Shown here in pieces: positions 18,439 to 27,412 of a stretch of 28,423 nucleotides of DNA (position 1 is the stretch's first letter; each line of letters opens with the position of its first letter). Source of the stretch: a virus (Duplodnaviria > Heunggongvirae > Uroviricota > Caudoviricetes); IMG/VR virus record IMGVR_UViG_2537562173_000011, positions 1 to 28,423 of that record. One strand, 5' to 3'. The translations under genes were made by a program, and so were the position numbers. The notes under the pieces were generated by a model. The model did not search any database. It saw only the letters and a list, made by a program, of their open reading frames with translations, and was not told the DNA's origin.

Positions 18439-20306
18439 TTACTGCTGTGGTTGTTGCTGAGTTGATTTTTGCAGGATGCTGCTGATGTCCATGCGCTGCG
18501 CATGGCCCTGTGCCTGACTTTTCAGGACAAGCTCTGCATCAGCACGGGCATTGTCTCCTTGCTGTTGCTGGAACTGTCCGAGCAGTTTCAGAGCCTCGCG
18601 GATATCAGATTTCTGCTGGCTATCGGCAGATGCGAGGATTTTCACAACATTTGCCGCTGCAACCTGAGCATCAGTCTGTGCCTGGAATGCTTTAACCTGA
18701 ATGGCTGCCTGCTCGTTCTGCGCTTTCTGCAATTCAGCCTGACCAGCAAGAAGCTGACCTTGCGCAGCAACCATAGCCGGATCTGGCTGACTGGCCTGTT
18801 GTTGTTTCGCCTGCTCAACCATCTGCTGTTCTTCTGGCGTTCTCGGCTTGATAACTCCAGACAGAAGCAACTGATTGCGGTTGTATTCTTTAAGGTCGTC
18901 CATCCCTTCGCCGTCCATATTGTCGAGGATCATCGACGATACAAGGTCGTGTTTCGGCGTTCCGGGCGGGATAAGTGCCAGCATGGAAAGTAACGACTTA
19001 ACCGTTGCGTCACGGCGAGTAGCGAACGCCTGACCGACATCGACAGTCACAGCCCGGCAAGAGCTGGAGGCATTTGTGTCGGAGGCGTATAACTGCTGAC
19101 CTGAGCCTGCGCAGTAATATCTCCGTTTTTGTTTTTCAGACTGACCATCGGCAGGAACGCCGGGCGCTTTTTGTTGCGCTCCGCCCAATGAGTGGCGAGA
19201 GGACCAGGAATCATGTCAACATCAACTACAGGAATGCCATCACCGCCAGCCTGAGTAGCGTTATCTGCAATCATGGAAACCATCAGGTTCTCAAGACGCT
19301 GTGCATCCATCGCTTTTGCTGCGTGGCCTTCGATTCGTTCCTGATTATCAACAAATGAGCGACGTCCATATACCGGGATGAGAGGAATATGTTCGCCCGG
19401 AATACGCTTCGGTTCTTCCAGCCATTCAGCGCCAGACAGAAGGCCGCAATAAACGCGGCGTTTCTTCACCGTTCGCTCGCCAATCAGTTCGAATGCACCA
19501 TCGGTCAGCTCGTCGACAATATCTTTGATTTGCTCTTCATCATAGATTGCCGTTTCTCCGCTAACAGGGTTGCGCCATGCCGTGAGCTTCACCTTCTCTA
19601 TGCGAACTTCGTAGTAGCGCCCAACATAGATGGCATCTGGCGTTGACCAGTCATATTGAGTGCCAGTCTCATCACGAGAAAGGCCTGCCGCGATGGAATC
19701 AGGGTATTCAGCCTCGAACGCTTTAGGCGTCATGGAGAACATTTCCATAGCCCACATAGCATCAGAACGGTCATATTGCTTGCTGTCCTGATCGAAGAAG
19801 ACGCATGTCGCTGGGTCGTAAACAGGAAGAAGGCTGATGCGTCGCTGCTCGTTACTTGGGTCCATTTCATCTTCGTAATCGGCACACATGCGGAAACAAC
19901 CGAATCCGCCCGTTACAGCATCATCAAATGCGTTATCACACGCTTCGCCACCTGATGTTTCCTGATAGTCAGCGCGGAATTTGCCGTTCATCTTTTTGGC
20001 TAACGCTTCCGATGCCTTGTCATCCTTCGGCCTGAATTTAACGCTGATGCGATTCTGTCGATACTCGCCAATGATGCGATCACATTCACGGGCAATCTTA
20101 TTCAGTTCAAAGCGCGGGTAATGCTCAAACCTGCCTTCATCAAATGAGTAACCAGCGTTTGTGCTGCCTTCCCACTGTGCGCCGGATACCCGGACGAAAC
20201 GTTGAGCCTCAATAATCTGCTCACGCATATCCTGCGTTGCTGACCAGGCATTATCAAAGTTGCACAGCACCTTGCGATGCCAGTCAGTCATCTTTTTTTC
20301 TGCCAT
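18439..20306 (-). pseudogene. Portal protein (P22 gp1 family), apparently split across two overlapping reading frames
   Basis: ORF 19047..20306 carries portal N-terminal motifs (RTVKKRRVY, GEHIPLIPVYG); ORF 18439..19188 carries the C-terminal barrel region (KPRTPEEQQ...DPAMVAAQGQLLAGQAELQKAQN). The two are in different frames and overlap by 142 bp. Confidence 0.65.
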
Positions 20307-23935: not shown

Positions 23936-24373
23936 TCATCGAAGGCATTGCGTCCTGATGTACTCCTGCAGGTAGTTAACCTGCGCGGTTATCCTGTCGA
24001 TTCCACTTCGGAGACGGTAATAATTGAGTTCAGCATCTGCTGTAAGTCTTGGGTTTTCTCCATCGCCCATGCTGCTGGCTCCGGTCGTTGACTTTGCACA
24101 GGTGGCGGCGACTTGCAGGCGCTTACGCCCAGCAGAAACATCAGCACGGAGACTTTCGATAGTCGCGTTAGCATCAGCAAGCTCCTTTGTGTATCTTGCG
24201 TCGAGTTCTGCTACATCACGTTGACGCTTCCGCATATCAGCGATGATGGATGTGGCTTTATCTCGCTGCTCTTTGTAGGCGATTGCATTATCACGGTAAT
24301 GATTAACAGCCCATGACAGGCAGACGATGATGAAAATAATCGGAGCGGAGATAATCGCGGTGACTCTGCTCAT
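23936..24373 (-). CDS. Rz: Inner-membrane spanin Rz (lambda type)
   Basis: 145 aa, [31 protein letters not shown]... closely matches lambda Rz; start overlaps the R stop (ATGA). Confidence 0.85.
23989..24174 (-). CDS. Rz1: Outer-membrane lipoprotein spanin Rz1, embedded in Rz in the +1 frame
   Basis: 61 aa from ATG 24174; lipobox LLGVSAC; proline-rich PPPVQ segment as in lambda Rz1; fully nested within Rz. Confidence 0.75.
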
Positions 24374-24846
24374 ACCTCAATCTCTCTGCCCGTCCCGCCA
24401 GCCTCTTTGAATTTTGCAATCAGGTTGTCAGCCTTATGCTCGAACTGACCATAACCAGCGCCCGGCAGTGAAGCCCAGATATTGCTGCAACGGTCGATTG
24501 CCTGACGAATATCACCGCGGTCAATCATCGGTAAAGCGCCACGCTCTTTAATCTGCTGCAATGCCACAGCGTCCTGACTTTTCGGAGAGAAGTCTTTCAG
24601 ACCAAGCTGCTTACGGTAGGCATCCCACCAACGGGAAAGAAGCTGGTAGCGTCCGGCGGCTGTTGATTTGAGTTTTGGGTTTAGCGTGACAAGCTTGCGA
24701 GGGTGATCGGAGTAATCAGTAAATAGCTCTCCGCCTACAATGACGTCATAACCATGATTTCTGGTTTTCTGCCGTCCGTTATCAGTTCCCTCTGACCACG
24801 CCAGCATATCGAGGAACGCCTTACGTTGATTATTGATTTCCACCAT
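24370..24846 (-). CDS. R: Endolysin, lambda R-type lytic transglycosylase
   Basis: 158 aa, [53 protein letters not shown]... is near-identical to lambda R as recalled. Confidence 0.9.
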
Positions 24847-25082
24847 CTTCTACTCCGGCTTTTTTAGCAGCGAAGCGTTTGATAAGCGAACCAATCGAGT
24901 CAGTACCGATGTAGCCGATGAACACGCTCGTTATATAAGCGAGATTGCTACTTAGTCCGGCGAAGTCGAGAAGGTCACGAATGAACCAGGCGATAATGGC
25001 GCACATCGTTGCGTCGATTACTGTTTTTGTAAACGCACCGCCATTATATCTGCCGCGAAGGTACGCCATTGCAAACGCAAGG
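24830..25082 (-). pseudogene. S: Holin S (lambda type), lacking its native N-terminus and start codons
   Basis: From ...[45 protein letters not shown]... to the C-terminus the translation matches lambda S, but the first ~24 codons ([24 protein letters not shown]) are replaced by the foldback/homopolymer junction. Confidence 0.8.
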
Positions 25083-25139
25083 CATCGGGGCAATCCTTGC
25101 GTTTGCAATGGCGTACCTTCGCGGCAGATATAATGGCGG
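25038..25139. repeat. Perfect 45-bp inverted repeat (foldback) with 12-bp spacer
   Basis: Left arm 25038-25082 is the exact reverse complement of right arm 25095-25139; both are holin S codons ~22-40, once in each orientation. The plus-strand copy plus spacer reads [21 protein letters not shown]. Confidence 0.95.
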
Positions 25140-25167
25140 GGGGGGTGTAAAAAAAAAAAAAAAAAAA
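25138..25167. repeat. Homopolymer tract G8-TGT-A19
   Basis: Read directly: gggggggg tgt aaaaaaaaaaaaaaaaaaa, between the foldback repeat and the argE-derived sequence. Confidence 0.95.
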
Positions 25168-25170
25168 TCC

Positions 25171-26022
25171 CCGCCATTTATCGAGATTTACCGTGCTCTG
25201 ATTGCCACACCTTCAATAAGCGCCACGGAAGAGGCACTCGATCAAAGCAATGCAGATTTAATCACTCTGCTGGCGGACTGGTTTAAGGATTTAGGCTTCA
25301 ATGTGGAAGTACAGCCTGTGCCAGGAACTCGCAACAAATTTAATATGCTGGCCAGTTGCGGACAGGGGGCTGGCGGTTTGTTGCTGGCGGGGCATACCGA
25401 TACGGTGCCATTTGATGACGGACGCTGGACGCGCGATCCATTTACGTTGACGGAGCATGACGGCAAGCTTTACGGCTTAGGCACCGCCGACATGAAAGGC
25501 TTTTTTGCGTTTATCCTTGATGCGCTACGCGATGTCGACGTCACGAAGCTTGCAAAACCGCTCTACATTCTGGCGACTGCCGATGAAGAAACCAGTATGG
25601 CCGGAGCGCGTTATTTTGCCGAAACTACCGCCCTGCGCCCGGATTGCGCCATCATTGGCGAGCCAACGTCGCTGCAACCGGTACGCGCGCATAAAGGTCA
25701 TATCTCTAACGCCATCCGTATTCAGGGCCAGTCGGGCCACTCCAGCGATCCAGCACGCGGAGTTAACGCTATCGAACTGATGCACGACGCCATCGGGCAT
25801 ATTTTGCAATTGCGCGATAACCTGAAAGAACGTTATCACTACGACGCGTTTACCGTGCCATACCCTACGCTCAACCTCGGGCATATCCACGGCGGCGATG
25901 CATCTAACCGTATTTGCGCTTGTTGTGAGTTGCATATGGATATTCGTCCGCTGCCAGGCATGACACTCAATGAACTTAACGGTTTGCTCAACGATGCATT
26001 GGCTCCAGTGAGCGAACGCTGG
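25171..26022 (+). pseudogene. argE: Internal fragment of acetylornithine deacetylase gene argE (about codons 6-289), no start codon, truncated 3' end
   Basis: Translation [62 protein letters not shown]...SERW matches E. coli ArgE as recalled; homology is lost after SERW, followed by VGL-stop. Confidence 0.85.
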
Positions 26023-26059
26023 GTGGGCTTGTGATGGTTGCTGAATGCAAAAGCAGCAG

Positions 26060-26100
26060 CATATGTGAATATTATGGCTAAATGGCTAATTGCATGTCAA
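26060..26100 (-). promoter_or_regulatory. Candidate late promoter pR' (sigma70-like TTGACA-N18-CATAAT) overlapping the 3' end of Q
   Basis: Minus-strand TTGACAtgcaattagccatttagcCATAAT; directed toward the lysis genes, at the position where lambdoid phages place pR'. Confidence 0.35.
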
Positions 26101-26596
26101 GGCTTTTAACAGCAACATGCTTAACTTTCTCAACACGTTTACGCATTTTGAAAGCATTTTGCATTGGTTGGTACAAAACAAATAACGACGCTTTCAGGAT
26201 GTCGTCAATTTCGTTTCTACAGGTTGCCATTGAAGGTTTTCTCCATCCCTCGCCACCACGTCCACACATCTTGCGTGGCTTTGCAGTCGCGTGATAGTAG
26301 GATGCAATTGCTCGCTTAGATGAACCATGAGCGTAGTAGCTGAGGAGGATGCCAAAGGCTTTCTTGTCAATGTACATGACGGAATCAACGACCTGAGAAA
26401 TCAACATTCCATCATCATCATTACACATTGGCCTTGTCATAATTCTTCCCGGCTCTACGCTCTCCATGAACTTCGCTATTACGCTGCTCATGCGCTTTTC
26501 CAGACGACCTGAATAAACCCATGCGCCCCACAGTTCAAGCCAGCCATTCAGCCACTCGTGCTGCTCTTTGGTGAGGTTTAGTTCTCTTATGCTCAT
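26078..26596 (-). CDS. Late-gene antiterminator Q (putative, non-lambda type)
   Basis: 172 aa at the canonical position between ninH and the lysis cassette; start overlaps the ninH stop (ATGA); contains a WLELWGAWV motif like the WGAW motif I recall in phage 21/82-type Q proteins. Not lambda Q. Confidence 0.55.
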   Translation of the reverse strand: MSIRELNLTKEQHEWLNGWLELWGAWVYSGRLEKRMSSVIAKFMESVEPGRIMTRPMCNDDDGMLISQVVDSVMYIDKKAFGILLSYYAHGSSKRAIASYYHATAKPRKMCGRGGEGWRKPSMATCRNEIDDILKASLFVLYQPMQNAFKMRKRVEKVKHVAVKSLDMQLAI

Positions 26597-27140: not shown

Positions 27141-27412
27141 TGGACAAACACCCTCCCATTGTTAACCAATTTTTTAAGGGTAAGCACAATGGCCCGATCC
27201 ATTTCAGCCCTTCGCTCTTCCCTGCTCATATCTCTCCCATTATCAATTCTTGAATGACAATCAACACATAGCGCAGCAGTAAGGCAATCATCTACTTTAA
27301 TCCCAACCCCCTTCCCTTCATTTCTGTGAGCGGCCTGAACTCCGTATCTTCCGCAAAGAACGCAAAATTCAATATCCCTGACTGCCTGAAGCCATTTTTT
27401 GCTTCTAAACAT
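27137..27412 (-). CDS. Cys-rich nin-region protein (YbcO/DUF1364-like)
   Basis: 91 aa from ATG 27412; cysteine pairs CVLCG ... CVDCH suggest a zinc-binding nuclease-like fold; sits upstream of rusA as in DLP12-type nin regions. Confidence 0.5.
   Translation of the reverse strand: MFRSKKWLQAVRDIEFCVLCGRYGVQAAHRNEGKGVGIKVDDCLTAALCVDCHSRIDNGRDMSREERRAEMDRAIVLTLKKLVNNGRVFVQ

Follow-up and report, generated by a model that had tools for sequence, protein, structure and literature searches.

An argE fragment between Q and S of a CUS-3-like prophage contig most likely reflects misassembly

The virus record IMGVR_UViG_2537562173_000011 comprises 28,423 bp (the window, by which we mean the whole stretch of DNA analysed) and represents the left 28 kb of a P22-like, CUS-3-like prophage with its late genes on the minus strand. 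Between the antiterminator gene Q and the holin gene S, the window carries 852 nt of argE. Judged from the sequence, this fragment is most probably an assembly artefact of the Illumina Genome Analyzer (GA) IIx draft of Escherichia coli strain i1, and the bacterium itself probably carries no argE between these two genes. We classify it as most likely not a real feature but a misassembly in contig AEYT01000031.1; its closest published parallel is the way in which GA errors open gaps in assemblies. The original prediction, made from the sequence alone, had implied a physical and biologically interesting insertion. That implication finds no support, given a GA IIx draft, a dephased junction, breakpoints at GGC, two nearby lesions, and no counterpart in 5,426 complete genomes.

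The argE fragment and its source contig

The fragment occupies positions 25171–26022 on the plus strand and comprises argE nt 16–867, or codons 6–289 of 383. It is identical to the argE gene of ATCC 11775 at 852 of 852 nt, and a megablast search with 25159–26022 returned 99.7% identity to sequence type 95 (ST95) genomes, such as UTI89, S88 and APEC O1. Translation of the 284 codons ends in APVSERW, and the called fusion open reading frame (ORF) carries the Pfam domains Peptidase_M20 (PF01546) and M20_dimer (PF07687). The complete 383-aa argE frame is not present: the sequence begins at codon 6 and stops at codon 289, 94 codons are lost from the end, and the start-codon region is replaced by a homopolymer-rich stretch with a run of 19 A (A19). 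The piece lies antisense to Q (26078–26596, minus strand) and to S-R-Rz (minus strand). It is a substitution and not a plain insertion, in that S has lost 71 nt from its 5′ end and the tR′ terminator has lost its 3′ arm. At the level of the gene, the piece is an argE pseudogene fragment. Hence, the predicted content of about 850 bp encoding ArgE residues ~6–289 inside the prophage, opposite to the late genes and without either the start codon or the C-terminal codons, was correct. The features around the fragment are as follows.

23936–24373, minus strand: Rz/Rz1, downstream of R
24370–24846, minus strand: endolysin gene R, intact, 99.8% identical to CUS-3
24830–25082, minus strand: remainder of the lambda-type holin gene S (S nt 72–324); codons 1–23, including the dual start, are absent
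25078–25139, plus strand: inverted 62-nt copy of S (S nt 55–116, sense on the plus strand), 100% identical to CUS-3 25229–25168, reversed
25140–25170, no strand assigned: homopolymer-rich junk of 31 nt (six G of a run of eight G, TGT, A19, TCC), corresponding to argE −18 to +15 with dephased calls
25171–26022, plus strand: argE nt 16–867, ST95-type allele, no mismatch in 852 nt
26023–26030, minus strand: surviving 5′ arm, AAGCCCAC, of a tR′-like terminator hairpin; loop, 3′ arm and T-run absent
26071–26100, minus strand: pR′-like sigma-70 promoter (TTGACA, 18-nt spacer, CATAAT; 11 of 12 consensus matches), overlapping the end of Q
26078–26596, minus strand: antiterminator gene Q, 172 aa, intact (ORF; Pfam Phage_antitermQ)

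The source of the window is a single short-read assembly. The fusion ORF, 25069–26034, occurs on exactly one contig of the assembly collection, AEYT01000031.1 (55,760 bp) of GCA_000233675.2, and the window is the last 28,423 bp of that contig. AEYT00000000 is the 2011 Illumina GA IIx paired-end draft (79 contigs in 56 scaffolds) of strain i1, a urinary E. coli isolate of clone A and ST95. AEYT01000031.1 thus belongs to an unfinished short-read assembly in which contigs were joined into scaffolds. Not a single N occurs in the window, and a scaffold join within it would therefore leave no mark. The 8.5 kb of host DNA adjoining the prophage on this contig align to APEC O1 and other ST95 genomes as one uninterrupted block at 100.0% identity.

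The arrangement was found nowhere else. None of 5,426 complete E. coli genomes held at least 80% of a query spanning Q, argE and S at one place, and the arrangement was likewise absent from phage records, viral contigs and contigs of species-representative genomes; on these searches, an origin in an engineered or already known strain was rejected. Relative to the prophage of AH19B041, the Q–S interval of the window is missing 1,310 bp, comprising the 3′ arm of tR′, an HNH endonuclease gene, the leader and S codons 1–23; relative to CUS-3, 660 bp are missing. The real prophage of i1 probably has a normal interval running from Q through pR′ and tR′ (with or without an HNH gene) to S, as in its relatives.

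Junctions, further lesions and sequencing errors

The left junction is written in miscalled bases. Its 31-nt junk aligns to argE −18 to +15 in register and without gaps at 19 of 31 positions; sliding it along 150 kb of background yields as high a score at only ~1e-4 of positions. On the minus strand, which leads out of argE towards its promoter, the errors begin directly after GGCGG, and 10 of the 11 repeat the preceding true base (7) or the second-preceding one (3). This lag pattern has P ~0.0014 against random miscalls, and the plus strand accounts for only 5 of 11. The left junction therefore carries a platform-specific run of miscalls in place of a clean consensus. Reads starting inside the junk would have given a clean consensus, so its dephased state argues against a junction present at normal depth.

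GA sequence-specific errors have been described as series of miscalls set off by GGC and inverted repeats; 49–64% of the mismatches equal the preceding reference base and ~20% the base before that, and the errors, attributed to lagging dephasing, produce false branches as well as gaps in the assembly (Nakamura et al. 2011, PMC3141275). The i1 junction resembles these errors in platform (GA IIx), in the position of the miscalls directly after GGCGG, in the copying of the preceding one or two bases at 10 of 11 sites, and in the enrichment of segment ends at GGC and hairpins. It differs in one respect. That account (PMC3141275) does not extend to a foreign contig of 850 bp being set into a gap, a step that we infer here.

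The junk is also compatible with an origin on the S side. An 8-mer, AATGGCGG, occurs in S in sense and in argE in antisense, and the junk lies exactly between its two inverted copies. A 9-mer, AATGGCGGT, is likewise common to S (sense) and argE (antisense), its copies facing each other as an 8-bp inverted repeat (25131–25178). The junk fits the dephased tail of S-sense reads after AATGGCGG as well, and either side could have supplied it. Two bad read tails thus appear to have met in low-complexity sequence. We considered A19 as the tail of a retro-insertion or as a non-templated addition and rejected both, since the run keeps register with a genuine argE stretch of equal length. Separately, 25169–25186 (minus strand) together with the T19 run looks terminator-like on the late-transcript strand, with a weak hairpin and a long T run; this is a by-product of the junk and is not conserved.

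At the right junction (26022/26023), argE runs to ...GAACGCTGG and is followed by GTGGGCTTGTGATGG; the join is clean, with 1 nt of microhomology. Beyond the junction, Q matches the Q/ninH/rusA regions of other prophages at 99.2% identity. The closest intact comparison, locus L002 of AH19B041, shares the pR′-like site and matches the window only as far as L002 3000/3001. In L002 the full hairpin reads AAGCCCAC-CTCCT-GTGGGCTT and then TTTTTT (L002 3008–2988), ~45 nt downstream of the strong pR′-like promoter. The phage-side end at Q therefore falls within a GC-rich hairpin. For the deposited sequence, the predicted consequence that a pR′ transcript would have to cross argE in antisense does hold, with the pR′-like promoter at 26100–26071 on the minus strand.

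On the other side, S is collinear with CUS-3 up to CUS-3 25212 (S nt 72), and its translation ends in GGNQ*; the gene caller reports a holin ORF of only 58 aa. Here the sequence turns back on itself. The turn sits at S's own CAAGG...CCTTG mini inverted repeat, with 5 nt of microhomology, and creates a palindrome with 59-nt arms (25024–25082 and 25095–25153; −66.8 kcal/mol, z = −13.5). We rejected self-primed fold-back at a double-strand break in S by sequence reasoning: the 12-nt loop has the wrong orientation, and a strand switch at CAAGG/CCTTG is needed.

The argE fragment does not stand alone. Two further lesions, one in the gp10 gene and one in the portal gene, lie within the same 11 kb, where the surrounding sequence is nearly identical to CUS-3 and to the prophage of ATCC 11775.

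15279–15358, no strand assigned: gp10 gene (packaged-DNA stabilisation); in place of 97 bp stand 52 nt from zwf, the dinucleotide AC and 27 nt from the scaffold gene
19050–19051, no strand assigned: portal gene, 331-bp deletion with frameshift and 0 nt of microhomology

The 27-mer from the scaffold gene has its native copy at 17938–17964. The zwf 52-mer differs by at least 1 nt from each of 5,420 E. coli genomes; against SK1144 it has 2 mismatches, both within its last 15 nt, and by eye these show no clear fit to the lag pattern. Elsewhere AEYT01000031.1 is essentially free of errors. The truncated gp10 product was found on AEYT01000031.1 alone, and the portal gene is split into ORFs of 249 and 419 aa. 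In the complete genomes, neither the gp10 nor the portal junction is spanned by a single alignment as it stands in the window, the flanks aligning separately; the exception is one 81%-identical alignment that spans the gp10 stretch. We also considered these lesions as seams between contigs of two prophages and rejected this, the density of single-nucleotide polymorphisms (SNPs) being 0–3 per 250 bp on either side of each lesion. As a side observation, two short Logan contigs, L010 (SRR26926509) and L011 (ERR10986533), stop 2–3 nt past the portal breakpoint (...CCGGGCTAT/T). These ends are probably a matter of chance in a collection with many short contigs, and could alternatively mark a recurrent graph branch or a read-failure site at the GGC motif.

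Several breakpoints share a chemistry-related motif. Of the 14 segment ends at the 7 junctions, followed in the direction of extension, 6 fall at GGC or no more than 3 nt past it, against a background of 5.9% (binomial P = 9e-5, for a test defined after the junctions had been viewed), and the Q-side end lies in a hairpin. Breakpoints thus fall at motifs where GA reads fail. Such strand-specific GGC breakpoints are predicted by GA chemistry and not by biology. Microhomology at the measurable junctions is 0–1 nt, with the exception of the S turn (5 nt), and filler is made of several pieces; the joins of the gp10 and portal lesions have 0 nt.

A plausible course connects these observations. Contig extension would halt where GA reads lose phase, that is, after GGC and at short inverted repeats, leaving a gap of ~1.3 kb in the Q–S interval and smaller gaps in gp10 and the portal gene. 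An argE piece of ~880 bp would be bounded by failure sites of its own, GG|C at nt 867 and, on the other strand, GGCGG at nt 15. The dephased tail of this piece would then run into the dephased tail of S-sense reads that follow AATGGCGG. Through the shared junk and the S-derived arm, the argE piece could become linked to the S locus and be dropped into the Q–S gap, and the remaining gaps would be closed without Ns. The exact behaviour of the assembler in this scheme is something we infer.

Alternative explanations

Several points weigh against an assembly artefact. The error-free argE stretch of 852 bp is far longer than a read, so a whole small contig must have been misplaced or duplicated. 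The right junction is clean. The fold-back in S calls for chimeric reads or a real inverted junction, and the dephasing model is silent on it. To these we add that the GGC test was framed post hoc, that the source paper leaves the assembler unnamed, that the accuracy check on host sequence covered 8.5 kb of the i1 assembly, and that a search for the native argE of i1 through C-terminal fragments of ArgE returned only fragments from unrelated assemblies. The artefact may instead have been born in the library. In this sub-case of the assembly-artefact reading, which differs in its first step, in vitro chimeras (from blunt ligation, from mate-pair circularisation, or from hairpin formation or strand switching during end repair or polymerase chain reaction) would have provided reads bridging the junctions, which misled a greedy assembler or gap closer. 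Blunt ligation would leave junctions with zero microhomology, and the fold-back in S demands a strand-switched molecule. The join of the scaffold 27-mer keeps the strand but reverses the order, and it falls 2,605 bp upstream of the native copy; this is the geometry of circularisation, and 2,605 bp lies inside the 1.5–4.5 kb mate-pair range of other isolates in the same study. Similarly, the 331-bp portal gap approximates the inner distance of a 300–700 bp paired-end insert. These size coincidences are weak, with one observation each. The paper, however, describes i1 only as paired-end and states mate pairs for clone D isolates, and rare chimeras would lose to abundant true reads unless coverage were missing, so a coverage gap would still be needed. 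We regard a library origin as a minority possibility, doubtful but worth keeping in view.

The alternative of most biological consequence is that the sequence is correct and records a very recent, strain-specific scar. A break or collapsed fork in the late region would have been healed by illegitimate joining or serial template switching, and the repair would have copied 62 nt of inverted S, ~880 nt of argE and the zwf and scaffold-gene snippets, leaving a dead prophage. E. coli is capable of Ku-independent end joining (alternative end joining, A-EJ) and of stress-induced template-switch rearrangements, and its illegitimate joints are mostly microhomology-mediated. The structure resembles illegitimate recombination, A-EJ or events of the microhomology-mediated break-induced replication type in that a deletion is paired with an insertion copied from elsewhere and the inverted duplication starts at a 5-nt inverted repeat. 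The public record has no N, argE is the exact allele of the strain type, as expected for a recent templated copy, and 852 bp of it are perfect far beyond read length. The right junction is clean (1 nt), the S turn uses the 5-nt inverted microhomology CAAGG/CCTTG as in strand-switch models, and loss of the S start and late leader would shield the host from lysis and could be selected. Known E. coli events, however, mostly show microhomology and clean junctions; here the joins have mostly 0–1 nt, the left one is corrupted, those of the other lesions have 0 nt plus filler, and the breakpoints track a motif of sequencing chemistry. A real scar does not predict the strand-specific GGC coincidence, and the left consensus of dephased calls in register with true argE and the errors gathered at the end of the zwf snippet also speak against it. 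Joins with 0–1 nt and multi-piece filler resemble non-homologous end joining, which, to our knowledge, E. coli lacks. The reading further requires three independent complex lesions, or one catastrophe, in 11 kb of a prophage otherwise intact and 99–100% conserved, and an arrangement seen nowhere else. A real scar is accordingly unlikely in our view. Its most specific form, a single catastrophic, chromoanasynthesis-like repair episode in an uropathogenic ST95 host that patched at least three breaks almost without microhomology, is a little less likely still.

We give almost no credence to a functional element, whether moron-like cargo, an antisense regulator of argE, or a holin-ArgE fusion acting in lysis control or arginine metabolism. 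An uninterrupted 321-aa ORF (25069–26034) does join 22 S-derived residues, a linker and ArgE 6–289, and the pR′-like promoter would transcribe argE in antisense without a terminator. The ORF, however, starts at a TTG inside the perfect palindrome, its linker is translated junk (A19 encoding K6), and the ArgE part ends 94 residues early. Conservation is entirely absent, with one contig in the collection and 0 of 5,426 genomes, and the flanking phage functions are destroyed and not preserved. The lambdoid Q–S slot is known to take cargo: in Stx phages, pR′ is followed by stx genes and tRNAs, and some P22-like phages carry HNH endonuclease genes there. The fragment shares this slot, in which AH19B041 carries an extra HNH endonuclease gene. 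Morons, however, are complete genes between intact neighbours, and usually bring a promoter and terminator of their own. The argE piece is truncated and antisense, has only chance-level promoter and terminator matches inside it, replaces tR′, the leader and the S start (S nt 1–71 and the tR′ 3′ arm are gone), and does not recur in related phages or lineages. The original view that it corresponds to no known moron type therefore stands: it is cut at both ends, its flanks are deleted and it has no recurrence. An assembly artefact remains the reading that we favour.

Prophage context and significance

CUS-3 (CP000711.1) is a P22-like Lederbergvirus that resides as a prophage at argW in E. coli K1 and carries neuO and an endosialidase tailspike. 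The window is collinear with it from int to the nin region at 92–99.8% identity, and the S-R-Rz, Q, terminase, portal and coat genes are common to both. CUS-3 and the prophages of ATCC 11775, APEC O1 and AH19B041 differ from the window in having a normal Q–S interval and intact gp10 and portal genes. The window opens at the ATG of the integrase gene and closes, at the end of AEYT01000031.1, within a ninX-like gene, so the right part of the prophage lies on another contig.

Other differences from relatives are of a familiar kind. The ejection-protein region (8793–12225) has almost no DNA match to CUS-3 or ATCC 11775, with short matches in 10444–10871 only, and 12225–15278 is only 92% identical with patchy SNPs. 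This divergence is ordinary lambdoid and P22-like mosaicism, and the lesions do not coincide with the patches. The heptanucleotide array of neuO (2044–2148; GAGTCTT, or AAGACTC in the coding direction) has 15 copies, compared with 19 in CUS-3 and ~30 in ATCC 11775; this is the known phase-variable poly-psi tract, which may have collapsed in short reads. A homing-endonuclease-like gene of the HNH/NUMOD4 type lies in the nin region (27405–27914, minus strand). In AH19B041, the closest relative on the Q side, the interval from tR′ to S holds another, distinct HNH gene (L002 2349–2861) that is absent from CUS-3. These genes fit mobile endonucleases as ordinary variable cargo in these slots. A repeated HNH gene as the cause of the Q–S assembly gap was rejected, as the AH19B041 gene and the gene at 27405–27914 share no DNA similarity.

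If the fragment is an artefact, it matters for data hygiene only. A public GenBank contig would hold a chimeric holin-ArgE "protein" and three false prophage lesions that could be mistaken for prophage domestication or host-gene capture, and the case would show how GA dephasing after GGC can seed mis-joins that leave no N. If the event were real, it would document that E. coli can repair breaks with patches from several templates, and would show a way in which a prophage is inactivated at one stroke. With no tR′, no S start, and a broken portal and gp10, both the lysis and the morphogenesis genes of the prophage would be disarmed, and such an event would be relevant to studies of bacterial double-strand-break repair and of prophage decay.

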